Virus record (IMG/VR): IMGVR_UViG_2740892421_000008
Span: 1 to 21,018 of that record
DNA from: a virus
Lineage: Duplodnaviria; Heunggongvirae; Uroviricota; Caudoviricetes
Reading direction: 5' to 3' (one strand)
Length of the DNA: 21,018 nucleotides
The notes under the pieces are model-generated. The model was not told the origin of the DNA. It did no database searches and saw only the letters and a list, made by a program, of their open reading frames with translations. Shown here one piece after another: positions 848-21,018 of this stretch (positions are counted from its first letter, which is position 1; the number at the start of each line of letters is the position of its first letter). The position numbers and the translations under genes were made by a program.

Positions 848-1936
848 TTAACCAAAATAATTGACGCCTTTTTTCTTGCCACTGGCTTTCCCCTTTGCAG
901 AAATATCCGTGGTCAGTGACAGATTCAGCGTAAATCCCTGTCCCGGTACCAGTGAAAACTCCACAGACTCAGCCTGCCAGTGATGGTCCTCACGCACACC
1001 AAATCCCTGCGTGACAAAACGCATCTCCGCCCCTGCTTTCAGCAGTTCCGGCCTGCAGGGCAACGTTATCGTCATCTGGCGTCCGGCTTTCTGCACACGT
1101 TTAACCTTCGACTCTGCACAGTGTTTTGCGGTGCCCTGGTCAGGCTGGGTAAACGGATGCCGCTTATCTGTTGACTCCACGTCAACTTTAACTTCACGTG
1201 TGCGTCCGTCACGGGCATCAAAATACCGGACCCCAACTTTCCCGCTCTTTTTATCCCCCTTCGCACCACCCGCAGCGCCCTGTCGCTCACCTTCACGATA
1301 ATCCCAGTCTGATACCATACCCGGCGTAATGGTTATCTCAGGCGCATTTCTGCCCCCCGTACTCTGTGATGCCCCGTATTCCAGAAATAACCAGTAGCCA
1401 TTGGTCGGTTTACTGGTGGCGCCGTACATACCTGCAATGCGGGACAAGAGAGCAGCATCAGATTCTGATGACTGCATCACCCACGGGATATGAATATCAG
1501 CAAGCACCGATGAGACGCGCGCCACCAGATTATTTTCAGTGGCGATGGTTTTCACCAGGTCGCCCAGTGTGATATCGCTGAAAGCCCGGGTTTTCAGTGC
1601 GGTCACGTCTGCGCCATGTTTTGACGCATTCATGGGGGCTGCGGTGGCATAAATGGTGATCCGGCGGGGAGGACCGCCGCTTGCCACCTGACAGACTGTA
1701 AAGCTGCCTTTATTGACCAGGTTTCCGTTGAATCCCAGTCCCAGCGTTAACACCGCGCCTTTTGGTGGCAGCGCCATCGTCTCACTGAACAGGGTTATCA
1801 TCAGTTCATCGGAGCGCTTTGTGGCAGCACCATTATCGGTATACCGCAGTTCAGCCAGCCCCCGTTTTAGGGCCTTCGTGATATCCTGGCCTTCCGCTGT
1901 CAGGCTGAAATCCGGCTGATATTCATTCAGTCCCAT
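848..1936 (-). CDS. D: Contractile-tail protein D (P2 gpD / late control gene D family)
   Basis: 362-aa ORF at the distal end of the tail block, directly after U and X as in P2-type tail operons; start overlaps the stop of X. Family call is by position and overall pattern, from memory. Confidence 0.8.
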   Translation of the reverse strand: MGLNEYQPDFSLTAEGQDITKALKRGLAELRYTDNGAATKRSDELMITLFSETMALPPKGAVLTLGLGFNGNLVNKGSFTVCQVASGGPPRRITIYATAAPMNASKHGADVTALKTRAFSDITLGDLVKTIATENNLVARVSSVLADIHIPWVMQSSESDAALLSRIAGMYGATSKPTNGYWLFLEYGASQSTGGRNAPEITITPGMVSDWDYREGERQGAAGGAKGDKKSGKVGVRYFDARDGRTREVKVDVESTDKRHPFTQPDQGTAKHCAESKVKRVQKAGRQMTITLPCRPELLKAGAEMRFVTQGFGVREDHHWQAESVEFSLVPGQGFTLNLSLTTDISAKGKASGKKKGVNYFG

Positions 1937-2145
1937 AACTGAAACGTCTCCTTCACTTCCGGTTCATATACCCAGTCCGGCAACACGATTTCCACTCCCG
2001 CCGGATAGACCGGACCAAGGTCAGCCAGTCCGGGATTGGCTTCCAGTACCGCCGCCAGTGACTGGTTAAGCCCGGTACTGCCATAGTGTCTCTGGCAGAT
2101 GTCATCCAGCATATCGCCGTCAGTAGTCCGCCAGTTTTTCGCCAT
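1927..2145 (-). CDS. X: Tail protein X (P2 gpX family)
   Basis: 72-aa ORF whose product (…DICQRHYGSTG…AAVLEANPGLADLGPVYPAGVEIVLPD…) follows the same pattern as P2 gpX (…DAICVRYYGRTEG…VLAANPGLAELGAVLPHGTAVELPD…). Overlaps both neighbours. Confidence 0.8.
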   Translation of the reverse strand: MAKNWRTTDGDMLDDICQRHYGSTGLNQSLAAVLEANPGLADLGPVYPAGVEIVLPDWVYEPEVKETFQLWD

Positions 2146-2614
2146 AGTATTTCAGCTCCAGTGTGAACGTTTTGTTCTTCGGCGCACCGCCGGGAAGAAA
2201 GGACGTGGTGTTATCTGAATAGGCGGTTGCCACGAAATACCCCATCACATCACCTGTGCTCGAGACCAGAAGATGCGGGGCCGGATTGTCATCCACCATC
2301 TGAACCAGTGTATCAAGGGCATCCATTCCCACACCGTCACGAAATCCCGCGTGCGCCATACCTTCAAGGGTTATTGTTCTGGCCCCCTTGCCGGTATACT
2401 GCAGCAGGTCGTTTTTTCCGATAAGCTGTTGTTCATCCCATCGCCATTCCATCGTGCGCTTCATGGCGTTATAAGCAGCAGTATCAATACTGAATTCAAA
2501 CTCACCAAACGACAGCATGACGCGGGAGGCGACATCCGTTAATGATCCCACCGCGTCCCATGCTCCACGCTCAAGCCGGTTTACGCCCCAGCCCAGCAAA
2601 TCCACCATATTCAC
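2120..2614 (-). CDS. U: Tail protein U (P2 gpU-like)
   Basis: 164-aa ORF between tape measure and X/D, the conserved gpU position; start overlaps the tape-measure stop by 4 nt. Sequence similarity to P2 gpU is weak by eye, so the call rests mostly on position and size. Confidence 0.65.
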   Translation of the reverse strand: MNMVDLLGWGVNRLERGAWDAVGSLTDVASRVMLSFGEFEFSIDTAAYNAMKRTMEWRWDEQQLIGKNDLLQYTGKGARTITLEGMAHAGFRDGVGMDALDTLVQMVDDNPAPHLLVSSTGDVMGYFVATAYSDNTTSFLPGGAPKNKTFTLELKYYGEKLADY

Positions 2615-4263
2615 CCCCAGAATGCATCACCATCGGTCATGCGGGAACGCTGACCAAAATTAATATCTCCCAGATTTTTCGTTACCCTGTCTGCCAGTTG
2701 TCCGGCATCCTCGCCGGGCTTCTGAGTGATGTTAAATTCCGCCCGTATCTGATATGTGGGTTTTACTTCCACCTGGCTGACACTGCCGGGTGTATACTGA
2801 AGAGCTGAGAGGGGATCCGAATTACCCTGCCCCGGATCTGCTGCATGAAGTCCATCAATGTAGGTGCGGGATTTCTCTTTTATCGCCTTAAAATCAGGTT
2901 CTTCTTTCGGCCCCAGCAGAGGGTCGAGAAATGCATCAAACTTTTTATCGTCATGATTCCAGGGGAGATAACCGCGGGTGTCTTTATAAGCCTGTACAAC
3001 CTGTTTCGTCAGGTCCGGATTTTGCCTGAGCAGTTCATCAAACCATTCTCCCTGACCGTTTTTCTGCGCCACCGCTCTCGCCAGCTCCGGCGACCCCATT
3101 TTTGCCAGATATTCCAGTACCTCTCGCCGGTCCTGACGCGGATCATCTGCCAGCCCCCACTCAATGGCTTTCTGCGTTATTCCGGCCAGAACTTTTCCAA
3201 ATTTCCACATCCAGGCAGCCATGTCGATCAGCGCCGGCAGGGCATCATCACGAATAAATGCCCGGATTTTTTCCAGCCCACCATTCTTAAACCAGGCCGC
3301 AAGGTCATCCGTCACCTGTTGAATATGTGGGGCAAGTTCATTACCCAGCTGTCCGCTGATTTCATCAATGGAAGAACTCAGAACATTACGGAGATTTGAC
3401 AGTGCCACATGTCCCTGAACTGCGCCATCAGCCCCTGCCTTTGTCACCAGGTTATAGCGTTTCTGCTCACTGATAAGCTCCCGATAAGTTTTCCCTGACA
3501 GACGCATCCAGGTCAGAATTTTATTGGCCTCACCACCGAACAACGCATCTGCCATTCCGGCAGCCACCTGTTCATTCTCTACCTGCAGTAAGCGATCAAA
3601 TAAAAATTCGACCTGCTCCTGGTTACTTTTCCCTGTCATCACCCCGGCTTTCAGTCCCAGTTTGCCAAAGACATCCTGAATGGCCCCTTTATCCGTGGCA
3701 CCATTATCATCGTCAAAAACCTTGTTCCGGTACTCCTCAAACAGATCACCGATGTTTTCACCGTTCAGCCCCATCAGTCGGGCCAGAGAATCCCATGACG
3801 CATAGGTTTCGTAATCCACCCCGTAACTCCGGGCTATCCCTGCCCGCTCTGCCGTTTCCGAATTCCGGTTCAGTACCGCGCCGGCACCTGCTGCCAGCGT
3901 CAACCCGGAACCAACCGAAAGCCCCATCCCGGTTTTAAGAACGGTCCCGCCCCGTCCTTTCCAGCGAGCCAGACGTTCCGCGCGCGCCAGCTTACGGTTA
4001 AATTTGTCCTGCTCCCCGGTGGCATCATGAATTTTTTTGCCCAGCTTTTCATACTGCTTTCGCAGATCAGTAATATCCTGTCCAGCCAGAACGCCAGCCT
4101 GAATTTTTCGTTTCAGTACGTCCTGCTGGCGTGTCAGACGAGCCACTTCCTGTGTTACCCCTGATAATCCGTGCTTCAACCCATCAACCGATTTTTTCCA
4201 CGACGGATCTATCGTGCCTCCGATCCGGATATTCGCTTTAAGGTTATCGCCCACCGTTGCCAT
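2611..4263 (-). CDS. T: Tail tape measure protein
   Basis: 550-aa ORF (MATVGDNL...) immediately downstream of the E/E' chaperone pair, predicted largely helical, with Gly-rich segments and a C-terminal region. Position is conserved in P2-type tails. Confidence 0.8.
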   Translation of the reverse strand: MATVGDNLKANIRIGGTIDPSWKKSVDGLKHGLSGVTQEVARLTRQQDVLKRKIQAGVLAGQDITDLRKQYEKLGKKIHDATGEQDKFNRKLARAERLARWKGRGGTVLKTGMGLSVGSGLTLAAGAGAVLNRNSETAERAGIARSYGVDYETYASWDSLARLMGLNGENIGDLFEEYRNKVFDDDNGATDKGAIQDVFGKLGLKAGVMTGKSNQEQVEFLFDRLLQVENEQVAAGMADALFGGEANKILTWMRLSGKTYRELISEQKRYNLVTKAGADGAVQGHVALSNLRNVLSSSIDEISGQLGNELAPHIQQVTDDLAAWFKNGGLEKIRAFIRDDALPALIDMAAWMWKFGKVLAGITQKAIEWGLADDPRQDRREVLEYLAKMGSPELARAVAQKNGQGEWFDELLRQNPDLTKQVVQAYKDTRGYLPWNHDDKKFDAFLDPLLGPKEEPDFKAIKEKSRTYIDGLHAADPGQGNSDPLSALQYTPGSVSQVEVKPTYQIRAEFNITQKPGEDAGQLADRVTKNLGDINFGQRSRMTDGDAFWG

Positions 4264-4689
4264 AACATCGCTTCCTCTCTTCCGACTCTGCCAGCATCAT
4301 TGCCACAAAATCCGTATACGGCAGCGCCATCACATCTCCGGGAGACCACCCGAACCAGGCACCGGCACGCCGTATCGCTGTCAGGATGCTTTCTTCTTCC
4401 GCCGGACCGGCGGCAGCAAAAAAACATTAAACTGACGCTCCAGGGCCAGGTAATCACACGCTTCCATGTTCATCATGTCTGCCGCGTCCATCCCACACAG
4501 ACCGGCAATCATATCCAGATCAGCCTCTGCTTCCGGTTTGTTACTCCGGCGATGCAACAGACGATCGCGGACAGTGGGCGCACGCATAGTGACGTGCGTG
4601 ATCGTCTGTCCTGATGCGGTGACATACGGCACGGATAACACAATTTCCACGCTGCTGGCAGGAACGCTGTTTTTTTCCGACATAAGCAT
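4244..4689 (-). CDS. E': Tail assembly chaperone E+E' fusion made by programmed -1 frameshift (predicted)
   Basis: My translation of the -1 frame from the slippery site gives a 57-codon extension (AAAGPAEEESILTAIRRAGAWFGWSPGDVMALPYTDFVAMMLAESEERKRCYGNGGR) ending at TAA 4246..4244, 17 nt past the tape-measure ATG. It has no start codon of its own. Predicted fusion is about 145 aa against 142 aa for P2 E+E'. Confidence 0.55.
4381..4689 (-). CDS. E: Tail assembly chaperone E (P2 gpE-like), zero-frame product
   Basis: 102-aa ORF between the tube gene and tape measure. Its 3' end contains a T7G run (minus-strand GTTTTTTTG, + coordinates 4417..4425) 34 nt before the stop. Confidence 0.75.
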   Translation of the reverse strand: MLMSEKNSVPASSVEIVLSVPYVTASGQTITHVTMRAPTVRDRLLHRRSNKPEAEADLDMIAGLCGMDAADMMNMEACDYLALERQFNVFLLPPVRRKKKAS

Positions 4690-4742
4690 CTCCTTTAAAA
4701 AAGAAAAGGCGGCCTGAGCCGCCTGAATGACAGGATCCCGGA

Positions 4743-5261
4743 TTAAACCCGGATGATTTTTTTCAGATCCGCCAGAACATTAACGCCATTAATACGACGT
4801 ACAAACTCCTCCGGAATAATGCAGATGGTTTCCACACCGTCGACAGCCTGGCGGTAATAACTCAGCGACATTTCCACCGTCACCGAGGCGTCTGCCTGCG
4901 ATGTTGCCGGACGTGCATCCGGCGTGATACTGGTGATCATCCCCTGCAGGGTTTCCACCTGTCCGCTGGTCGCATTCCCCACCTGATAGCCCTGGCGGAC
5001 AACAATCTCCGGCGAATAAAGCCCGGCCTGTAATCCCAGCAGCGTCAGCATGGCAACATCATAGCCATAAATCTTAAACGAACAGGTCAGCGCTTCCATG
5101 CCGTCATCCACTGCCACCGGTGCATCCATTGCGCCGGTTTTGATATCCACTGTCGTGATATTAATGGCTGGCGGCGTGTATTCATGCGCCCCCTGAAGGC
5201 GGATCCCGCCAGGAAGAAATAACGCCCATGCGCGCAACAGTTTTTTTTCACCCGTCATCAT
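4743..5261 (-). CDS. FII: Tail tube protein (P2 FII-like)
   Basis: 172-aa ORF directly after the sheath gene with a 4-nt stop/start overlap, the conserved sheath-tube order and a size typical for a contractile-tail tube protein. Confidence 0.85.
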   Translation of the reverse strand: MMTGEKKLLRAWALFLPGGIRLQGAHEYTPPAINITTVDIKTGAMDAPVAVDDGMEALTCSFKIYGYDVAMLTLLGLQAGLYSPEIVVRQGYQVGNATSGQVETLQGMITSITPDARPATSQADASVTVEMSLSYYRQAVDGVETICIIPEEFVRRINGVNVLADLKKIIRV

Positions 5262-6733
5262 ACTGTCAGTTCCTCCAGCGCCAGTTTATTGTTAATCATT
5301 GCCCGCAGTGTCAGGCGCTCCAGTGGTGACTTCGGCCCAAAGTCATAATCAATATACAACTGCCCTGCCGCCAGGGTTTCTGCAGTGTTCAGTTCATCGT
5401 TCAGCCATGCACTGCCACCGTGGATCGCGCCCAGATTTTTAAGCTGACGCATATAGGCATTAATGCTGCCAAGAATGTCGTCTGCCACATCCCGATCAAG
5501 CGGGCGATCGACATAAGGCAGCATGGCCTCCTGGATGCTGTCCTCAATCACATCTGCAGTGCGGCGTACCGGCTCAAAACGCCACTGACTGTGGGATGTG
5601 CACAGACGGTTACCCCAGTGTTTAAAACCGTCATGGCGAATAATGGTGGAGATATTTTCCATGTTCAGCAGGTTTGCCGTGCAGTTCTGCTCCCCGAGAA
5701 TAAACGTATCCACCTGCTCCAGACCGGTGATATTCATCACGTCCTGGTTTGATTTGGACCACCACCACCCTTTTTCGTAATCAATACGGGCACGCAGCCC
5801 GGCAGCACGAGCCGAATATGGACGAAATATCGTTTGCCCGCTGTCATCCGTCACTGACACGCGCGGACGCAGCAGCTCCACACGCCCACCAAATGACGCG
5901 CGCCGCTGAACCACATCCTGCGGCGTTGCCATTGAGGGCGAGTCAATATAGGCCACAGCCCGCAGCTTCGCGGCATACGTTTCCAGCGCCTTTGCCACGC
6001 CATCATCCTCACTGTACCCCGTGGCGATGAGGATGCGCGGTTGATAGCCTGTCACGCCCTTACTTTCTGTCAGCGCCTCCATGGCCTGAATCACCGCCGC
6101 ACGCTGTTCGGCCTCTTTCGCCTTTGTTTTACTTTCTGCGCGCACCACAATCACCAGCGCCCCAGTCTGGTCAAAAATATCTCGCAGGGCCGGGTATAAT
6201 GTTCCGGCTGTGCCCAGTTTCCCGGCCTGAGTAATGGCCCCTGCCACCACCACTGGTGTATTGACCGGGAACGCCTCATCTTCTCCGCCGGATAACGTCA
6301 GGCTGAACGGCAACACCACTTTATTTTCAGCGTCTCCTGCATTCAGGGTGCTGACAGCCGCCGTCACAGGCGAATCCCCCAGCGCATTCACCACTTCAGT
6401 CACACGGTCCGCCGTGGCGTTAACCTGGCTGTGTTCGTCCGTCCCCAGTGTTATCGTCAGGGTCGTACCTTTCAGCGAGGCCACTGTCTGCGCATTTTGT
6501 TCTGTGGCAGCCACAGCAACAACCGAAATCTTATTACCGGCCCGACCTTCCTGTTTCGCCGTGAAATCCAGCGCCGTTCCCAGCAGCCAGGAGCCGGCTG
6601 TGCCGGAAGCGCACACACCACCAGAGGCGTCCGGCGCTGTCCCCACCAGGCCAATCACTGCCGTGGAGATGGTCTGCACGGCAACCGTGCCTGTCGTCAG
6701 TTCAATGGTTTCAACACCATGTAATCCGGACAT
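5258..6733 (-). CDS. FI: Tail sheath protein (P2 FI-like)
   Basis: 491-aa ORF. The C-terminal two thirds (…RILIATGYSEDDG…RHDGFKHWGNRLCTS…LAAGQLYIDYDFGPKSPLERLTLR…) match the P2 FI sheath pattern (…RDGFRFWGNRTCS…[24 protein letters not shown]…). Strong GGGAGAAA Shine-Dalgarno upstream. Confidence 0.9.
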   Translation of the reverse strand: MSGLHGVETIELTTGTVAVQTISTAVIGLVGTAPDASGGVCASGTAGSWLLGTALDFTAKQEGRAGNKISVVAVAATEQNAQTVASLKGTTLTITLGTDEHSQVNATADRVTEVVNALGDSPVTAAVSTLNAGDAENKVVLPFSLTLSGGEDEAFPVNTPVVVAGAITQAGKLGTAGTLYPALRDIFDQTGALVIVVRAESKTKAKEAEQRAAVIQAMEALTESKGVTGYQPRILIATGYSEDDGVAKALETYAAKLRAVAYIDSPSMATPQDVVQRRASFGGRVELLRPRVSVTDDSGQTIFRPYSARAAGLRARIDYEKGWWWSKSNQDVMNITGLEQVDTFILGEQNCTANLLNMENISTIIRHDGFKHWGNRLCTSHSQWRFEPVRRTADVIEDSIQEAMLPYVDRPLDRDVADDILGSINAYMRQLKNLGAIHGGSAWLNDELNTAETLAAGQLYIDYDFGPKSPLERLTLRAMINNKLALEELTV

Positions 6734-6746
6734 ACATTTCTCCCAT

Positions 6747-6768
6747 AAAAAAACCGCCCTCAGGCGGT
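6747..6768 (-). terminator. Candidate intrinsic terminator between the fibre-assembly gene and the sheath gene
   Basis: Minus-strand transcript reads ACCGCC-UGAG-GGCGGU followed by UUUUUUU (+ strand aaaaaaaccgccctcaggcggt). It sits 20 nt after the fibre-assembly stop and 13 nt before the sheath ATG. Confidence 0.45.
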
Positions 6769-6787
6769 CAGATGATTAACTTCTTTT

Positions 6788-7333
6788 TCAGGTATTTTGT
6801 GGCTGCTCAGGCCAGCTAATATTGTTGTATGTGGTCTTATCCGTAATAGCGCTGAAATCCATCGCCTGCAGCGATTTCGCGTAAATGCGGTACGCTTTCA
6901 GCTTCTCCCTGTCTTCGTCACTGATTAATCCCAGCAGCAGGTCTTTTCCCCATTCGCTGGTCATGATGCTGACCTGTTTTAACAGTGCATCACGCTCATC
7001 TTCCGCTTTAAGTTTGTAGTCAAAAACAAATTCATCATTGCGATAAAACCAGTAACCCGACGCCTCAATGCGACGATTGGCGGTAATATCCGGTAACTCA
7101 ATCACGCTTTTATTTTCCGGGCAGATTGAGGTGATGTCTTTTCCGACCCAGACCACCTCGCCAGTTTCAACATAAATAACTTTCAGAGTGTCTGGCTGAA
7201 ATTTTTCCTGGGCTTCGTGCCATTCCTGACCATCATCGGAGAACAGCCACAATAAAAATTTATGCTGTCGCGCCAGCTGGTATTGCTCAATTGTTTTAGG
7301 GTTTTGTGCCGTAATATTTTTTAAGTGCATCAT
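6788..7333 (-). CDS. tfa: Tail fibre assembly protein (Tfa / P2 gpG-like)
   Basis: 181-aa ORF immediately downstream of fibre gene H, with the size and C-terminal character (…YNNISWPEQPQNT) of enterobacterial phage fibre-assembly chaperones. Confidence 0.8.
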   Translation of the reverse strand: MMHLKNITAQNPKTIEQYQLARQHKFLLWLFSDDGQEWHEAQEKFQPDTLKVIYVETGEVVWVGKDITSICPENKSVIELPDITANRRIEASGYWFYRNDEFVFDYKLKAEDERDALLKQVSIMTSEWGKDLLLGLISDEDREKLKAYRIYAKSLQAMDFSAITDKTTYNNISWPEQPQNT

Positions 7334-7335
7334 AA

Positions 7336-8553
7336 TTACAAACTCGCTACATTCCGCCAGACCCCATTAATCAGAACCTGCACCGGGCGGGCATTGGCCC
7401 AGTCCATACTTTCACCACCGTCAAGACCGCTGATAAGGTGACCTGATGGTGCATTCCCGCCACGCCCAATACCAATGGCACCGCCCAGACGCACATCCTG
7501 TACACCGCCTGTTTTGGTTTGATAGCGGGCATCAAAGTTTCCGTAGTCTGACGGTGTTACCCGACCTGAAACATTCACTGCCCGGTTACTTTGTAACGCG
7601 CCATTCTGAAAACGGAATACGTGCTGACCATTGGCATAAACATCCAGCAGGCCGTCACCATTCTGTTTCAGGCCGGTATCGTTATCTCCGAAAGCAATTG
7701 AGTTTCCACCCAGCGCGTTCTGAACGCCGATACCCAGCGCACCATTGACCTGAGAACCGCCGCCAACAGACACTTTATGCGACATGGATATTTCACCCGT
7801 CCGCAGATTAATAGTGAACGGTCGAAGTGGACCAATATCGCCATTCTCGCCCTGACCTTCACTGGTAGGGATAAGGTGCAGGCACTCTTCCGAACGACGA
7901 AAAATCAGACCAAAGGCTTCGTTGAAAATCCTCAGCGCATTAACACCACGGATTTTCAGTTCCCCGGTCATGGTGTCACCATCACGCTGAACGGCACTTT
8001 TTGCCTTGTCCACCGTAGGTTTTAATCCGAGGTTTTCAACAGCCTCATCCTTGTCTTCCACATCCGAAAGATTCTTTTTTCGTTGCAGATAGCGTCTGTC
8101 TCCGATTTCCTGAGTAATAATGGCCCTGTCCGGATCAACTTCCAGCACCACGTTTTGTGCGTGCGTCAGCCCAAGAACCAGCGTCAGAATAACTTCCTTG
8201 ATAACAGAGTCCGTCTGGTCTGGTAAAAAGGTGTCCGGATAACGCCCGTATGCGATAAGCGTACCACTGTCGCTGATCATCCCCAGTTCACGAAGGGTTT
8301 TACCGGGGTATGATTTGCAGTCAATCACAACATCCCCGCTGATGAATCCCTCCTCCACCGCGCCGTCCGAAAAGGGTTCCTGTCCGAATTCGCCGTACAA
8401 TGATGTCATTGCTGCCATTTCATCCGGCGTGGATGGCAATGCCTGCCCGCCCCCGTCACCAAGCAGAACATGCCGGACGGTCACGGTTTGCCCGTTCTGA
8501 TATGCTGCTTCAATTTCTGCAGCGCCGGACGTTGTCAGAATCAGTCCATTCAT
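7336..8553 (-). CDS. H: Tail fibre protein (P2 gpH-like)
   Basis: 405 aa. The N-terminus (…TTSGAAEIEAAY…HVLLGDGGG…) parallels P2 gpH (…TTAGAAKLAAAT…MAVGDGGG…), and the C-terminal region (ALGGNSIAFGDNDTGLKQNGDGLLDVYANGQHVFRFQNGA…) parallels the gpH C-terminus (ALGGSSIVLGDNDTGFKQNGDGILDVYANSQRVFRFQNGV…). Confidence 0.85.
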   Translation of the reverse strand: MNGLILTTSGAAEIEAAYQNGQTVTVRHVLLGDGGGQALPSTPDEMAAMTSLYGEFGQEPFSDGAVEEGFISGDVVIDCKSYPGKTLRELGMISDSGTLIAYGRYPDTFLPDQTDSVIKEVILTLVLGLTHAQNVVLEVDPDRAIITQEIGDRRYLQRKKNLSDVEDKDEAVENLGLKPTVDKAKSAVQRDGDTMTGELKIRGVNALRIFNEAFGLIFRRSEECLHLIPTSEGQGENGDIGPLRPFTINLRTGEISMSHKVSVGGGSQVNGALGIGVQNALGGNSIAFGDNDTGLKQNGDGLLDVYANGQHVFRFQNGALQSNRAVNVSGRVTPSDYGNFDARYQTKTGGVQDVRLGGAIGIGRGGNAPSGHLISGLDGGESMDWANARPVQVLINGVWRNVASL

Positions 8554-9140
8554 ACACCTGCCTCACTCTGCCCGCCAGTGGGCACTGTCTTTGTTATCAC
8601 ACCGTTACTTCTGATTTTTTCCGTCGCCATCACATAACCGTAACAAAATCCCCGCCCTGTGCTGTTCCCGTAAACGTGAATACTGAACCAGCTGCGCAGA
8701 TTTTTGGCACGGAGCACCGCATGCTTCAGATCCTGATGATCATTCATCAGCACCGGTAAATCCTTCTGCTCCACGTTCAGACGAAAGGTATACGGCTCCC
8801 CGGGTGGGGTCTGCTCATACCACTCAACAATCTGCGATCGGAAGGGACTGTCAGCCAGCGATGCCATCAGCGCCGCTTTAGTCCCTCTGTGGCGGTGGAT
8901 GTAAGCAGCACGTTTTATCGCAGACCTTTTTTCCGTCTCCGTCCAGTGTTCATTCCAGGTATCCACCGCCATTTCCCAGGCCAGCCATGGCAGCAATTCA
9001 GCAGGACATAAATCGGGATTTTTCACATAGCGGATCAGGCAGACCGCTATGTCTGACAGCATATCTCCGGCGACACAGTCCACCACCCGCTCTGCCAGAC
9101 TGGCACTGACCGGCAGTATGCTCCTGATATCGTCATTCAT
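8550..9140 (-). CDS. I: Baseplate/tail protein I (P2 gpI-like)
   Basis: 196 aa; …NPDLCPAELLPWLAWEMAVDTWNEHW… matches the P2 gpI pattern …NPDTCPANLLPWLAWAFSVDRWDEKW…. Overlaps both J and H. Confidence 0.85.
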   Translation of the reverse strand: MNDDIRSILPVSASLAERVVDCVAGDMLSDIAVCLIRYVKNPDLCPAELLPWLAWEMAVDTWNEHWTETEKRSAIKRAAYIHRHRGTKAALMASLADSPFRSQIVEWYEQTPPGEPYTFRLNVEQKDLPVLMNDHQDLKHAVLRAKNLRSWFSIHVYGNSTGRGFCYGYVMATEKIRSNGVITKTVPTGGQSEAGV

Positions 9141-14577: not shown

Positions 14578-15150
14578 TTACGGCATACTCATCAGCAGGT
14601 CTTCTTCCCCGCGCCCGGCAGTTCCGCCACCGGAAACCGCACTGGCAGCATGCTGTGCCATAAAGCGATCAAAAAGTGTTTCCTGTGACGGTTGCGATGC
14701 CGCCGGCGCGGCTGCCAGCAGCGTTTTCGCCTGCGCCACCGTCATTCCTGGCTGTTCTGTCAGTGCCTGTGCAAGTTGTTCGCGCCCTTTCGCCTCCGGC
14801 AGCGCCATAATCTGATCGCCGACACTTGCAGAACCCGCAACCGGTGCCGCCGCCAGTAACGTTTTGGCCTGGTCAACGGTCATTCCCGGCTGTTCAGCCA
14901 GCGCCTGCGCGAGTTGTTCACGCCCTTTTGCTTCCGGCAACGCCATAATCTGATCACCCGTGCTGTCAGTACCGGCAACCGGCGCAGCTGCAAGCAACGT
15001 TTTCGCCTGCTCAACCGTCATTCCTGGCTGACCTGCCAGCATTTGCGCCAGTTGCTCGCGCCCTTTCGCCTCCTGACAATTCAGGATCCCCATCACGCGC
15101 TGATTTTCCTGGACCACCGCTTCAGCAACGGTCAGATTTTTAACTGTCAT
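14578..15150 (-). CDS. nu3: Nested scaffold protein (lambda Nu3-like), translated in the C frame from an internal start
   Basis: Internal in-frame ATG at 15150..15148 is preceded on the minus strand by ACAGGAGGAAACG-ATG, a perfect AGGAGG Shine-Dalgarno (+ 15156..15161) with a 5-nt spacer. Predicted product is 190 aa (MTVKNLTVAEAVVQENQ…) and contains all three repeats. Lambda Nu3 is made the same way from within gene C. Confidence 0.55.
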   Translation of the reverse strand: MTVKNLTVAEAVVQENQRVMGILNCQEAKGREQLAQMLAGQPGMTVEQAKTLLAAAPVAGTDSTGDQIMALPEAKGREQLAQALAEQPGMTVDQAKTLLAAAPVAGSASVGDQIMALPEAKGREQLAQALTEQPGMTVAQAKTLLAAAPAASQPSQETLFDRFMAQHAASAVSGGGTAGRGEEDLLMSMP

Positions 15151-16056
15151 CGTTTCCTCCTGTGTAACAGATTCATTCAGTGCAGAAACCATCACTTCAA
15201 CAGCATCTGCAGCATTAATCAGTTGATCAGCCAGGCCTGCATCAATGCCTGCCTGACCGTCATAAACGGCAGCCTCGGTATTCATCACCGCCTCTGAACT
15301 CAGCCCCGTATAAAGCGCCACCTTGTCGACAAACATCCGGCGGGCCTCATCAATACGGCGCTGAAAATCTGCACGCACACCTGCCGGCAATGCCTGAATA
15401 CTGTTGCCGTCAACCTTGTGCTGCCCGGAGTAAATCAGCGTGATGTCCACCCCTTCCTGTGCCAGTTGTTTCTCGTAACTGGCGTGCGCCATCATCACGC
15501 CAATCGAACCAATTTTTGCCGTCTGCGTGACCAGCCGACGGGTACAGGCTGCCGCCAGCAACATGGCGGCTGAACAGGCCATGTCATTACACAGCGCCCA
15601 CACGGGCTTCTGTTCCCGCAGACGGTAAATCATGTCAGCACAGTCAAACGCCCCGGCAGCCTGACCGCCCGGGCTGTCGATATCCAGCAAAATGCCGCGC
15701 ACATCCGGATCATTCACCGCCATCTGAAGGCGGGCCGTCAGGCCGTCATAGCCAGTCATGCCGGAGTAAGGCCGCAGGGTACCCAGTTTATGCACCAGCG
15801 TGCCGCTCACCGGCAGAATGGCGATGCCATTCTTCACCTGGTAACTCTTTGCCGGACGCTGACCGCCCGCCATATAGTCAGTCACAGCCAGTTGCATTCC
15901 ATCAGCATCAAGCTGAACAGCCTGCTGAGGAACGGCAAGGCTGCCGGCCCCTATCTCCTTACCCAGCGCGCAAAAGAAAACCCGCGCATAGGCGGGTTCC
16001 AGTAAAAGCGGTTCATTAAATGCCATGGCGGCAATATGCGATAAATTACGACGCAT
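14578..16056 (-). CDS. C: Prohead protease / scaffold protein, lambda gpC-like (S49/ClpP-type N-terminal protease domain, repeat-containing C-terminal scaffold domain)
   Basis: 492-aa ORF directly after the portal gene (start overlaps the portal stop). The N-terminal two thirds look like a serine peptidase domain; the C-terminal third carries three tandem copies of a 46-aa module. Confidence 0.88.
   Translation of the reverse strand: MRRNLSHIAAMAFNEPLLLEPAYARVFFCALGKEIGAGSLAVPQQAVQLDADGMQLAVTDYMAGGQRPAKSYQVKNGIAILPVSGTLVHKLGTLRPYSGMTGYDGLTARLQMAVNDPDVRGILLDIDSPGGQAAGAFDCADMIYRLREQKPVWALCNDMACSAAMLLAAACTRRLVTQTAKIGSIGVMMAHASYEKQLAQEGVDITLIYSGQHKVDGNSIQALPAGVRADFQRRIDEARRMFVDKVALYTGLSSEAVMNTEAAVYDGQAGIDAGLADQLINAADAVEVMVSALNESVTQEETMTVKNLTVAEAVVQENQRVMGILNCQEAKGREQLAQMLAGQPGMTVEQAKTLLAAAPVAGTDSTGDQIMALPEAKGREQLAQALAEQPGMTVDQAKTLLAAAPVAGSASVGDQIMALPEAKGREQLAQALTEQPGMTVAQAKTLLAAAPAASQPSQETLFDRFMAQHAASAVSGGGTAGRGEEDLLMSMP
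14698..15072. repeat. Tandem in-frame coding repeats, 138-bp period (about 2.7 copies of a 46-aa module EAKGREQLAQxLxxQPGMTVxQAKTLLAAAPVAG…DQIMALP)
   Basis: The landmark gccataatctgatc recurs on the + strand at 14804 and 14942 (138 bp apart). The three protein copies are near-identical, while the DNA copies differ at many positions. Confidence 0.8.
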
Positions 16057-17826: not shown

Positions 17827-19743
17827 TTATCCTCCACTCAGTGCAGCCGCGATTTCTTCCAGACTCATCTCATCGTCGTCCTGCTCATCTCTTCTGGCAC
17901 GGGCCAGTGCTTCAAGATCCAGCTGCCACCGCTGAACTGAAATACGCAGGGCAGCATAGGCATATACCAGGCAGTCGAGGGCTTCGTTGCGTCGCCCTTT
18001 TTTATCCCACAGCAGTTTCACCCTGCCATTAACCACCTTCTCCACCAGCTCTTCCGCCACGATCTGACGCGCCTCTTCTTCCGAAAAAATGTCGGGGTTA
18101 TCCGGAAAACGGACGGTATACGGGGCGGCTTCACTGACAGAGACCACTGGCAGGGCAAAACGGGCGTACAGCATTTCCTTGACGGTATCGGAGCCCACCT
18201 CACACAAAAACACACCACGCTGGTTGCGCTTTTTGGGCATGGTGATCACCGGCTTGCCGTACACCGATGCCCCTTTTATGGGAAGCACAAAAAAAGTGCC
18301 GTGTTTCCTGGAACGCTGATACACAATGTCCTGGTCGATACCACCGGTATCCCAGCAGACACGGGAAATGGAAATTTCAGTACCGTCAGCATGACGATAT
18401 TTTTTCCGGATCACCGTATCAACACGTTTAAGGGTGTCCTCGTCTTCCGGTCGCCCCATGATAATTTGCTTATCAATCAGAAAGGCTTCTTCGCCGGGAG
18501 CCCAGCCCCAGACATAAATTTCATAGCGATCTTTCTGGGAGTCGATCCCGGCGGTCAGGTAAACCACCCGCAGGGGAACCTGCGCACCATAGTGGCAGAC
18601 TTTTTCCAGCAACAACTCAAAGCTCAGTTTTTCTGCCACGGCCTCTTCATAGGGCTCCCCGAGCGTGGTGTTAATAAACGTCTTAACACCGTTCGGATCC
18701 TTCAGCGCATCCAGCCAGTCATAAACAATCTGTACCCAGGTGGTGAACGGACTGTACGCTGTCCACACGTGGTACGTGATTGAGCGCGGTGGCGGCATCT
18801 CCTCATCACCGGCGCTGTAAAATGCCAGGCCGTCGCGCGTCCACATCCCGGTATTGTCACAAATCCAGCGCCCGTCGGTCTGGTCAAGTTCCGACTGCCG
18901 GATCACACAGCCATTATGTTCACACAGGTAATACACCGTTTCCGGTTTACCCTTCTCCCATTTCAGGCCAAACGGCGTCGCATCATCGCCAAACTTCAGA
19001 TACTGGGCCTCCCCGCAATGAGGGCAAGGGACATAAAACCGCATGAAATGCGCAGATTCATTCGCGGCTTTCTCAATCTGGCAGGAGCCTTTAATTTTCG
19101 GCGTTGAGCCGCGTATGGATTTAGGCCATACCGAGCCTTCGATACGTTTATCGCCAAGCAGCGTCGGCGAGCCTTCTTTTTCCACATCCGGTTCAAACGA
19201 GGAGAGTTCGTCATAGCAGACCACATCCACAGATTTTTCACGGTAGTTTTTAGCTGCGGCACCGCCCAGGCACCAGAACCCCACGCCGGAGGAAAAACGC
19301 TTCAGGGTAAGTGTATTATCGCGGTGCTTTCTTCCGTACCATGGAGCCAGCTCCAGCAATGCAGGGACATCCCTGATCGTTGGCTCAACATGAGATTTCA
19401 TGAAATCTTCTGCCGCAGAATCTGTTGGCTGAAAAAGCAGACTGTTACGGGATTTATGCTCAATAAAATAAGCCTCCACCCCCAACAGCATTTTGGTGTA
19501 ACCAACGCGCGCCGATTTAATCAGATTAACGGTGCGGATCCGGTCATTTCCCATGCTGTTCATAATGGCAACCTGAAACGGCAGGGTTTCCCATTGTCCG
19601 GGAGTGTATGAAGATTCTTTCGGCAGATAATAATGTTGATCAGCCCACTGAACCGTCGTCAGTGGAACCGGAATATTGAGAGATAAAAGCCCTGTAGCTA
19701 TCGCACCGGCTGCATTAGCTGCCTTCTGTGCGTCTGAAATCAT
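17827..19743 (-). CDS. A: Terminase large subunit, lambda gpA-like
   Basis: Collinear with lambda gpA: …[25 protein letters not shown]…[14 protein letters not shown]…FIEHK…[16 protein letters not shown]…[14 protein letters not shown]…[14 protein letters not shown]…[25 protein letters not shown]…[18 protein letters not shown]. The track start (19785) adds 14 residues; I prefer ATG 19743..19741, which gives lambda-like spacing to the WAD motif and a 29-nt overlap with the small subunit. Confidence 0.93.
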
Positions 19744-20263
19744 CAATCCACCTGCCCACGTTTTCACCGGCTTTAGCTGCAACATTGGAGGCTTTCGCGA
19801 TTTCAGTTTTCACCACATCAAGGTGTGATGGTGAAATATCCGGATATTTACGCTGTAATGTCAGCGGCACACGTACAAGTATCCCCGAAATCTCCTGTGC
19901 CACACGTTGCAGAATGAAGGTAAACAATTCCGTTTCCAGCACCAGCCCTTCTTCACGGGCATTTTTCAGCTCCTGTGCGTCAGCCTGTGCTTTGGTGAGC
20001 CGGTAGCGTTCATAGTCAATGGTGCCGGGTTGTAAATCTGATTCTGCAGCCGCACGCAAATCTTCCAGTTCTTTGCGGAGCTTTTCGTTTTCGATATCTT
20101 TTTCCCGCTGCGCATACCACTCAATGGCTTCTGCAGTATTGAACATGGCTTCGATACCTTTGCCTCCCCCCGACAAAACTCTCAGCCCCTGACTTTGCCA
20201 GCCAGTGATTGTTCTGACATCGCACTCAAAAATTTCCGCCAGTTTCTTTTTGTTAACCTTCAC
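19715..20263 (-). CDS. nu1: Terminase small subunit, lambda Nu1-like
   Basis: 182 aa; (M)[11 protein letters not shown]…[20 protein letters not shown]…[48 protein letters not shown]… parallels lambda Nu1 (MEVNKKQLADIF…GGGKG…[47 protein letters not shown]…). The start codon is GTG (20263..20261) with GAGG about 10 nt upstream. Sits directly downstream of the cos repeats. Confidence 0.9.
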
Positions 20264-20460
20264 GGCACATATTCCTCACAAAAAGAAGAAAGGATCTCAA
20301 AACGCTTTTTTCAGCGAAAAATCACCGCTGCCAGATCCTTTCTTTTTTTTAAGAAAACCCTATTAAACAACAGGTTAGCCAGAAGAAGAACGGATCTGCT
20401 TTTTCCCTGAAAATTTTCATAAATAGCGCGTTTTTGCGCGTCCCCAGACCCTCGGTGTTT
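20264..20460 (-). other. cos site: predicted cosN (about 20436..20458) plus cosB with three Nu1-binding-type repeats (R3-like 20381..20399, inverted R2-like 20332..20349, R1-like 20281..20298)
   Basis: On the minus strand the region reads gggtctggggacgcgcaaaaacgCGCTATTTATGAAAATTTTCagggaaaaagcagatcCGTTCTTCTTCtg…, collinear with the lambda left end GGGCGGCGACCTCGCGGGTTTTCGCTATTTATGAAAATTTTCCGG…CGTTTCCGTTCTTCTTCG. The motif AGAAGAA(A/C)GGATC occurs twice in direct and once in inverted orientation, with 100 bp between the outer copies, as for lambda R3/R2/R1. Confidence 0.75.
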
Positions 20461-20593
20461 CAGGTTCTGGAAAGGACCCATAAAAAAGAGAACAATTATC
20501 ATTGCATTGAAGACATCAATCTTGTTGTATTGCCACAAATCAGGGCCATTAAACAAACATGTCAAAGAATAACAATTCAAAGTGACCTGCCAA

Positions 20594-20839
20594 TTAATAG
20601 GCCTGATAACTAATTAATGATATTTCCGTTTTCCCGCTAGAATATGTTCTATAATGCAGGATAACTTTTGTATTTTCATTCAAAGCATTAATTATTGATT
20701 GTTTTGATATGTCTGGAAATTGGTTTTGAATATCAGCAACCAATGTTTCAAGATAAAGATCAACCTCTCTGCGCGGTGGTACACAACATAAATTGTATAA
20801 ATAGTTATTAACTATATTCGTAACATTTCTCATGCCCAC
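20594..20839 (-). CDS. Hypothetical small protein (about 79-81 aa) in the AT-rich segment to the right of cos
   Basis: Only ORF of 60 aa or more in the low-GC stretch; co-directional with the late genes. Track start is GTG 20839 (GAGG 4 nt upstream); alternative ATG at 20833. No family recognised; AT-rich codon usage unlike the structural genes. Confidence 0.3.
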   Translation of the reverse strand: MGMRNVTNIVNNYLYNLCCVPPRREVDLYLETLVADIQNQFPDISKQSIINALNENTKVILHYRTYSSGKTEISLISYQAY

Positions 20840-20940
20840 AATGCCTCATGATAAAAAATATTAACCTGTATTCACTCCTGATATAATATCATAAAAAAAA
20901 TCCAACTTATCCTTTCCATCAAAGTGGTAATGACTCCAAC

Positions 20941-21018
20941 TTATTGATAGTGTTTTATGTTCAGATAATGCCCGATGACTTTGTCATGCAGCTCCACCGA
21001 TTTTGAGAACGACAGCGA
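20941..21018 (-). CDS. 3' end of an unidentified gene entering from beyond the right window edge
   Basis: One minus-strand frame is open from the window edge and stops at TAA 20943..20941 (…SLSFSKSVELHDKVIGHYLNIKHYQ*); the other two minus frames stop within 20 codons of the edge. Only 26 codons are visible. Confidence 0.3.
   Translation of the reverse strand, partial: SLSFSKSVELHDKVIGHYLNIKHYQ

Follow-up and report, generated by a model that had tools for sequence, protein, structure and literature searches.

The window analysed here is a stretch of 21,018 nucleotides, positions 1 to 21,018 of the IMG/VR virus record IMGVR_UViG_2740892421_000008 (Caudoviricetes), whose right end consists of AT-rich DNA beside a phage cos site. 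We found that this DNA carries one small gene on the minus strand, encoding a 79-residue protein with a predicted winged-helix fold that belongs to a very rare and unannotated family, and that the last 93 bp of the window are the end of the insertion sequence IS1. Taken together, the right end of the window very probably belongs to the accessory slot in the late operon of a lambda-like prophage, at the side nearest cos, and this slot has been cut by IS1. The elements on which this reading is based are as follows.

17827-19785, minus strand: gene for a large terminase subunit of the lambda gpA type (from the open reading frame list)
19715-20263, minus strand: gene for a small terminase subunit of the Nu1 type (from the same list)
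20280-20398, minus strand: cosB, with three small-terminase binding repeats upstream of nu1, R1 at 20280-20297, R2 (inverted) at 20332-20350 and R3 at 20383-20398 (from the repeat families D3, I1 and I3 and the alignment with lambda cos)
20436-20452, minus strand: cosN, the nicking site, approximate position (from alignment with the joined lambda ends)
20473-20479, minus strand: cosQ heptamer GGGTCCT, packaging-termination signal (aligned with lambda 48473-48479)
20506-20925, no strand assigned: AT-rich foreign segment, the first 420 bp of a cos-linked module of about 780 bp, cut at 20925/20926 by IS1
20594-20833, minus strand: gene for a 79-residue protein of predicted winged-helix fold, starting with ATG at 20833; a GTG at 20839, two codons upstream, would give 81 residues
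20879-20891, no strand assigned: 13-bp perfect palindrome TGATATAATATCA, with an extended -10 motif on both strands
20926-21018, minus strand: right end of IS1, with the terminal inverted repeat from 20926 (GGTAATGACTCC...), running off the window
20941-21018, minus strand: last 25 codons and stop codon (20941-20943) of insB / insAB'

All long open reading frames (ORFs) of the window lie on the minus strand. Read leftwards from the window edge, the late strand would consist of IS1 (20926 and beyond) with its transposase gene pointing toward the small ORF, an AT-rich spacer of 86 nt that contains a candidate extended -10 motif, the 79-codon gene (20833 to 20594), a spacer of about 90 nt, cosQ, cosN, cosB and the Nu1 gene. 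The Pfam labels found on a metagenomic copy of the locus are Phage_Nu1, GpA_ATPase/GpA_nuclease, gpW, Phage_portal_2 and Peptidase_S49. The preliminary description of this DNA had noticed that the base composition drops sharply right of cos, and this was clearly the case. The GC content is 0.316 over 20461-20925 against about 0.53 for the whole window; in 400-nt windows it is 0.347 at 20401-20800 and 0.323 at 20601-21000, while left of 20000 the minimum is 0.448 and most values lie at 0.50-0.60. The TATAAT-like hexamers mentioned along with this drop are present, but sigma-70-like sites do not exceed the level of shuffled sequence (3 found, 2.7 expected). A terminator scan of the window detected none, an Rfam scan of 20200-21018 (E values up to 1) returned a single chance microRNA match within cosB, and Tandem Repeats Finder run on the window found nothing.

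The cos site is of the lambda type, with the cosQ heptamer, cosN, and the cosB repeats R3, R2 (inverted) and R1 upstream of nu1. The heptamer GGGTCCT at 20473-20479, which we take to be cosQ, lies in an 11-nt block GGGTCCTTTCC identical to that of lambda, and the I2-like block flanking cosN, CGCTATTTATGAAAATTTTC, is also identical. While cosQ and the I2-like block are conserved, the predicted 12-nt core of the cohesive ends (around 20436-20452) is unlike the GGGCGGCGACCT of lambda; the cohesive-end sequence given here would follow from the alignment with the lambda ends. In lambda-like phages the order is cosQ-cosN-cosB, with R2 opposite in orientation to R3 and R1, and the 7-bp cosQ is strongly conserved (PMC4669245). 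Sequence similar to lambda reaches to about 20505, so the first 45 bases (20461-20505) of what had been taken as the AT-rich interval are still cos; the interval had been correctly placed to the right of cos, but it includes cosQ and its lambda-like flank. We also noted an 89-codon ORF on the minus strand (20311-20580) that spans R2, R3, cosN and cosQ and whose counterpart in GenBank KU052038 is labelled "NU1-like protein". It is probably not a gene. As this ORF of 89 amino acids also enters the interval, the small ORF (20594..20839 when counted from the GTG) does exist as described earlier but is not the only one of 60 amino acids or more.

Judging from related prophages, the late-strand slot that separates the lysis genes from cos is a true exchangeable cargo position. 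Relatives with the same cos and Nu1 (93-96% identity) diverge from the window at about 20503. In SerU-LTIIb (locus L021, KU052038), which has the same cos/Nu1 module, the slot is occupied by eltIIbAB, the genes of the LT-IIb enterotoxin, and in another prophage with this module by a gene for a hypothetical protein of 131 amino acids. The slot is differently filled in related prophages, the pattern being one of replacement and not of clean presence or absence. The proposal that the lysis-to-cos position serves as an accessory slot, made beforehand from general knowledge of lambdoid phages, is borne out by these prophages. LT-II loci have been described directly 3' of a lysis gene, adjoining terminase small-subunit genes, in a study that also gives the adjacency definition of a moron in the Hendrix/Juhala sense (Jobling & Holmes 2012, PMC3252337).

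The AT-rich segment is present in 14 of 5426 complete Escherichia coli genomes, in all cases with at least 99.6% identity, and a DNA search against 50,697 phage records gave no match. Except for strain ETEC1746, whose prophage is described below, these genomes (13 in number) carry it uninterrupted. The shared module extends for 777-781 bp from the equivalent of position 20461 in five uninterrupted relatives, and its right-hand neighbours vary, comprising endolysin cassettes of the M15 or GH108 type, Stx2k, or an AB5 toxin. The Stx2k-converting prophage of STEC313 (L004) has the same cos/terminase module and also carries the AT-rich module. With the same cos and terminase found in both STEC313 and SerU-LTIIb, one packaging module is common to prophages with three toxin types.

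All uninterrupted relatives further contain an ORF of 70 codons with a lipobox (LLVGC), situated between the winged-helix gene and the lysis genes (L002 9726-9938, minus strand), in the part of the module that has been lost from the window. Annotators differ in the start codon, giving a putative lipoprotein of 61 or 70 amino acids, and it has no Pfam match. When an intact relative was scanned for promoters and terminators, promoter-like sites were not above the level of shuffles, and the sole strong terminator-like hairpin lies within the lipoprotein ORF. We considered a toxin-antitoxin-like pair formed by this gene and the winged-helix gene, and rejected it because the latter is solitary in every other context.

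We next turn to the small ORF itself. Its composition is that of the segment and not of the phage, with GC contents at the three codon positions of 0.38, 0.30 and 0.24 against 0.58, 0.42 and 0.57 in the large terminase gene, in agreement with the atypical codon usage reported earlier. Dinucleotide shuffling of the segment yields an equally long ORF in 4% of cases, and length alone is thus weak evidence for a gene. A word-indexed search retrieved only its own cluster, in about 330 contigs, all from E. coli, where it is "hypothetical" or "uncharacterised" at best. An exhaustive HMMER search against 1.84 billion representative proteins identified four full-length proteins of about 80 amino acids with 36-47% identity. 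Four others, among them proteins of Citrobacter amalonaticus and Buttiauxella gaviniae, came from a profile search, and a repeat with the larger profile gave no further members. The family thus defined comprises nine full-length clusters among 5.8 billion protein clusters, from Enterobacterales or metagenomes only, most of which sit among phage genes and whose members display 35-49% identity. They have the motifs IVDNxLYNKCC and KEISLISY in common.

The sole pair of members that is not saturated at synonymous sites has a synonymous divergence (dS) of 0.32 and a nonsynonymous divergence (dN) of 0.09 (dN/dS 0.28). The remaining pairs retain 35-49% amino acid identity despite saturated synonymous sites. 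On these sequence comparisons, the ORF is a genuine gene under purifying selection. Among close relatives there are zero changes inside the ORF and few outside, and a selection signal from this source was rejected, as the differences are too few and none falls in the ORF. Absence or disruption of the ORF in close relatives, which the preliminary description had named, in combination with a missing expression signal, as evidence against it, was not observed; the ORF is intact and invariant in all of them.

No recognisable family had been seen for the ORF, and for the curated libraries this is correct: searches of Pfam, PHROGs, NCBIfam and PADLOC with the ORF and the nine family members gave nothing above the curated thresholds. 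The small, uncharacterised family described above nevertheless exists. A profile search against PDB sequences gave no match (E values of 0.59 or higher), tblastn with two family members against 50,697 phage genomes gave none, and a scan of 185,579 species-representative genomes revealed no relative. IMG/VR contains one truncated copy only.

The structure of the protein was predicted with AlphaFold2, as the preliminary description had proposed. From the single sequence the predicted local distance difference test score (pLDDT) was 78, and with an alignment of nine sequences it rose to 91, with a predicted template modelling score (pTM) of 0.78 and the topology a1-b1-a2-a3-b2-b3. This is the order of elements of a winged helix (a1-b1-a2-a3-b2-wing-b3), and according to the model the protein is a canonical winged-helix fold. 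Foldseek searches of PDB and BFVD gave weak matches, the named ones being nearly all winged-helix or helix-turn-helix proteins. The best match to a winged-helix family in Pfam was Cac1_C with 17 bits, below the cut-off of 24.3. Six of the nine members have an isoelectric point (pI) of 4.5-5.1; that of the window copy is 6.5 and one member is basic at 8.9. The third helix consists mostly of hydrophobic and acidic residues with few basic ones in most members, and in the window copy it is polar (SKQSIINALN).

The contexts in which members of the family are found were compared, and are listed below.

Four clusters, late strand: between a Mu F-like head gene and a scaffold gene
L025: directly after the Terminase_3 large subunit gene
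L013, opposite strand: between terS and the lysis genes
L008 and L009: decayed prophage remnants
L022 and L023: after an acetyltransferase, in an ambiguous setting
Window copy: between the lysis genes and cos

In every context examined the GC content of the gene is below that of its flanks (0.29-0.43 for the genes, 0.48-0.51 for the loci; 0.31 against 0.53 in the window). In L008, L009, L011 and L014 the gene has a strong Shine-Dalgarno sequence in front and an intrinsic terminator immediately behind its stop codon, with no room for a separate promoter. The homologues are single low-GC genes at several sites of phage packaging and head modules, a terminator of their own being present in some, and in this respect the gene is moron-like. 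As far as the gene neighbourhoods tell, the pattern is consistent with an accessory gene of late operons that is solitary and moves horizontally. The earlier suggestion of a candidate moron region has held up for the ORF, in that it is a real, compositionally foreign single-gene unit whose homologues are distributed as morons are.

Two explanations for particular contexts were tried and discarded. A mobile insertion splitting terS (L009 6641-8000, and L010) was rejected by BLAST; what is found there is a deletion remnant that joins the 5' end of terS to the 3' end of the Mu F gene of an L014-like phage. The protein was also considered as an immunity protein for a Mu F-fused polymorphic toxin, but the adjacent Mu F proteins, at only 296-330 amino acids, were judged too short to hold a toxin domain, and the window context is without a Mu F gene.

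The right-hand boundary of the segment is an IS1 end. A minus-strand gene ending at 20941 had been reported previously, and there is indeed a stop codon at 20941-20943. The tail of this gene had been taken for possible phage cargo, but it proved to be the 3' end of the IS1 transposase gene, with the terminal repeat (GGTAATGACTCC...) beginning at 20926. The sequence 20941-21018 translates to SLSFSKSVELHDKVIGHYLNIKHYQ, with the C-terminal end ...HDKVIGHYLNIKHYQ. All 93 bp of 20926-21018 are identical to IS1 copies annotated in the phages SfIV, RCS47 and P1, and the IS1 end matches thousands of E. coli records at 95% identity or higher. ETEC1746 is the only one of the 5426 complete genomes that covers the whole query and hence shares the junction, and its annotation at this point reads "IS1-like element IS1A family transposase". 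The full transposase gene in this genome (locus L001) scores 143.8 bits on the NCBIfam model NF033558 transpos_IS1, for which the cut-off is 100, and the element is complete, with 768 bp and both inverted repeats (L001 9627-10394).

BLAST revealed that L001 corresponds to the prophage of STEC308 (L019, NZ_CP091020.1) with positions 1158-8663 replaced by IS1, the identity being 99.9% in the left flank and 100% in the right flank; the DNA bordering the ETEC1746 element on the right is present in STEC308 as well, 7.5 kb further along the prophage. The replaced segment held the 70-aa lipoprotein gene, two small ORFs, an M15 endolysin gene, two holin genes, a pertussis-like AB5 toxin gene pair, the DUF1133, DUF1364 and DUF1367 genes (nin region), IS421, hok and the first 59 nt of a gene for 363 amino acids. 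The loss of the endolysin and holins indicates that the ETEC1746 prophage is lysis-defective. According to the annotation, the AB5 pair in STEC308 consists of an enterotoxin A family ADP-ribosyltransferase and a subtilase-family B subunit; it is located just upstream of the holin/M15 endolysin cassette, and the whole block is absent from ETEC1746. No 9-bp target-site duplication is present in ETEC1746, the flanks of the element being catcaaagt and agcttcttg. This follows from the 7.5-kb replacement relative to STEC308 and is no argument against the identification of IS1.

Positions 19769-20925 of the window are 100% identical to STEC308, and elsewhere the window is 99.2-99.8% identical to ETEC1746. 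We infer from the shared junction that the same 7.5-kb deletion occurred in the genome from which the window derives, in which case a complete IS1 of 768 bp would be followed by ...agcttcttggttcatcactggg, part of the truncated 363-aa gene. A 10-mer, TCCAACTTAT, is present at 20901-20910 in the target, 16 bp from the junction, and recurs at 20935-20944 within the terminal repeat of IS1. IS1 reportedly favours AT-rich targets resembling its own ends; the repeat fits such a preference, and may also be due to chance.

As to expression, the 13-bp palindrome supplies two of the three matches to TGNTAWWAT in the whole 21-kb window. Its minus-strand -10 copy, TGATATTAT (20883-20891), lies 50 nt upstream of the ATG of the ORF, and by its match to the consensus the palindrome is a candidate promoter or operator. 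In the intact relatives the gene would be transcribed with the late operon. In the lineage of the window, the gene would depend solely on the candidate promoter or on transcription reading through from the IS1 transposase gene, which points in the same direction. As for function, the winged helix could act as a protein-binding module that modulates a protein of the host or of a competing element late in infection. Because the family is acidic and its third helix is poor in basic residues, we tentatively favour a protein-binding accessory role over sequence-specific DNA binding. A broader proposal is that this family of 79-80 residues is a new single-gene accessory factor, acting by protein binding and passed among unrelated packaging and head modules in the temperate phages of enterobacteria. 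The factor might, for example, act against a host defence, or against a satellite, by which terminase, portal or capsid proteins are sensed or hijacked, and the sporadic, low-GC, terminator-flanked copies in late operons would mark an unrecognised counter-defence moron. We regard this proposal as speculative and, as a whole, doubtful.

Several other explanations were weighed. That the ORF stays open by chance, the AT-rich DNA beside cos being a non-coding spacer, would accord with its length being reached in 4% of shuffles, with its never having been called by the Prokaryotic Genome Annotation Pipeline (PGAP) and with its failure to match any curated family. This is hardly credible in view of the equal-length homologues at 35-49% identity with conserved IVDNxLYNKCC and KEISLISY, the amino acid identity kept over saturated synonymous sites together with a dN/dS of 0.28, and a fold that is predicted confidently from the single sequence as well as from the alignment. 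The preliminary description had also supposed that a cargo region continues past the window edge, with the gene ending at 20941 as its next member. The intact relatives do carry the 70-aa lipoprotein, lysis and AB5 toxin genes in this direction, but the gene ending at 20941 is insB of IS1, and in the only genome that shares the junction those further genes are deleted, IS1 having taken the place of 7.5 kb retained in STEC308. With the IS1 end at the edge and this replacement in ETEC1746, a cargo region very probably does not continue past the window edge, and a multi-gene region beginning here is highly improbable.

The two other alternatives concern what the protein does. It may be a sequence-specific DNA-binding regulator, either a repressor that controls its own gene at the 13-bp palindrome or a protein controlling genes of the host or the prophage, as many small winged helix-turn-helix proteins do. 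DNA binders such as Fur/PerR, MarR, SarA and CtsR dominate this class of fold, the perfect palindrome doubles as an extended -10 motif 44 nt upstream of the start codon, and the window copy is near neutral with a polar third helix. Against this stand the pI of 4.5-5.1 in six of nine members and a third helix that is hydrophobic or acidic in most. A palindrome of this kind is moreover unremarkable in DNA of 32% GC (about 0.2 expected in the segment by our estimate), and in other contexts the start of the gene is 10-25 nt from the end of the one before it. A regulator therefore appears rather unlikely to us. In the other alternative the protein would assist DNA packaging or head assembly as an accessory factor, acting with terminase, portal, Mu F or cos/pac DNA, and would be part of the phage machinery and not cargo. 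Most of the informative contexts lie inside or beside packaging and head modules, mostly on the late strand. The window copy adjoins cos/Nu1, the L025 copy follows the large terminase gene, and in four clusters the gene comes after Mu F. Lambda Nu1 binds DNA through a winged helix-turn-helix domain, which also speaks for such a factor. The gene, however, accompanies three unrelated terminase types (Nu1/GpA, Terminase_2/6 and Terminase_3), and is absent both from the 50,697 deposited phage genomes and from relatives with the same cos/Nu1 module. Its base composition is foreign, a terminator of its own follows it in four homologue loci, and an essential morphogenetic factor would not be so sporadic. 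We consider a packaging factor improbable.

Returning to the accessory gene in a slot cut by IS1, a number of observations weigh against this reading or parts of it. PGAP, as applied in RefSeq, leaves the ORF without a gene call in all 14 complete genomes, and the invariance of the ORF in close relatives means that these provide no selection signal. No terminator follows the ORF in the window and promoter-like sites are not enriched there, so that the window copy does not present itself as an autonomous unit. The window displays only 93 bp of IS1, and the deletion is demonstrated in ETEC1746, a related but not the same sequence. The near-neutral window copy (pI 6.5) and the basic homologue (pI 8.9) weaken the argument against DNA binding, and no annotated homologue of the family points to a function.

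Two further observations concern neighbouring DNA. In ETEC1746, three plus-strand genes (L001 10395-12486) are located between IS1 and the Q antiterminator gene, encoding proteins of 363 (truncated by IS1), 142 and 197 amino acids. None of the three has a Pfam match; the 197-aa gene has a weak match to PADLOC PDC-S54 (E 0.0014). The cluster is found in 14 complete E. coli genomes only, including that of enteropathogenic E. coli (EPEC) E2348/69. At the other side of the terminase genes, the S49 peptidase/scaffold gene (14578-16056, minus strand) contains three tandem units of 138 nt, or 46 codons (14703-15116), the second and third with 79% and 65% identity to the first. The window has one 138-bp unit more than ETEC1746, and the copy number is accordingly variable among close relatives.

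With respect to novelty, an IS1 end and prophage decay are ordinary, and the correct reading of the locus is that nothing at the window edge is phage cargo. What the analysis adds is that the lysis-to-cos slot of this group of Rac/lambda-like phages is confirmed as exchangeable, carrying LT-II and adjoining Stx2k and pertussis-like toxin modules in relatives, and that its occupant here represents a genuine, very rare and unannotated small-protein family with a confident winged-helix model. If the protein were a counter-defence or packaging-interference factor, that repertoire would gain a new family; if not, the gene is simply another phage ORFan whose product has a common fold. The novelty is modest, consisting of a tiny uncharacterised family with a common fold and a case of routine IS1-driven prophage decay.

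When the components are compared with known systems, the cos site agrees with that of lambda in the cosQ heptamer, the CGCTATTTATGAAAATTTTC block, the R3/R2 (inverted)/R1 layout and the Nu1 and gpA homologues, and differs in the 12-nt cohesive-end core, which is not GGGCGGCGACCT. The IS1 end resembles other IS1-associated deletions in E. coli prophages, with a terminal repeat and insB 3' end identical to those of IS1A-type elements and an AT-rich target; the absence of a target duplication together with an exact 7.5-kb replacement is the signature of an IS-associated deletion, and nothing is unusual apart from only 93 bp of the element being in the window. Known small winged helices include the DNA-binding domains of Fur/PerR and MarR, phage Xis, SSV1 F-93 and the protein-binding examples of ESCRT-II, kleisins and cullins. 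In comparison with these, the family is mostly acidic, falls outside every Pfam winged-helix family and has signature motifs, LYNxCC and EISLISY, not seen in known winged-helix families. In relation to the morons located between lysis and cos/terminase genes, such as lambda bor and the LT-II loci of Rac-like lambdoid prophages (PMC3252337), a promoter or terminator is not demonstrable in the window, the gene is on the late strand, unlike lambda bor, which has the opposite orientation, and one 79-aa winged-helix protein makes up the cargo instead of a toxin or an outer-membrane protein. The slot itself is the same as in those morons, downstream of lysis and upstream of cos/terS, with foreign composition and a content that differs between related phages.

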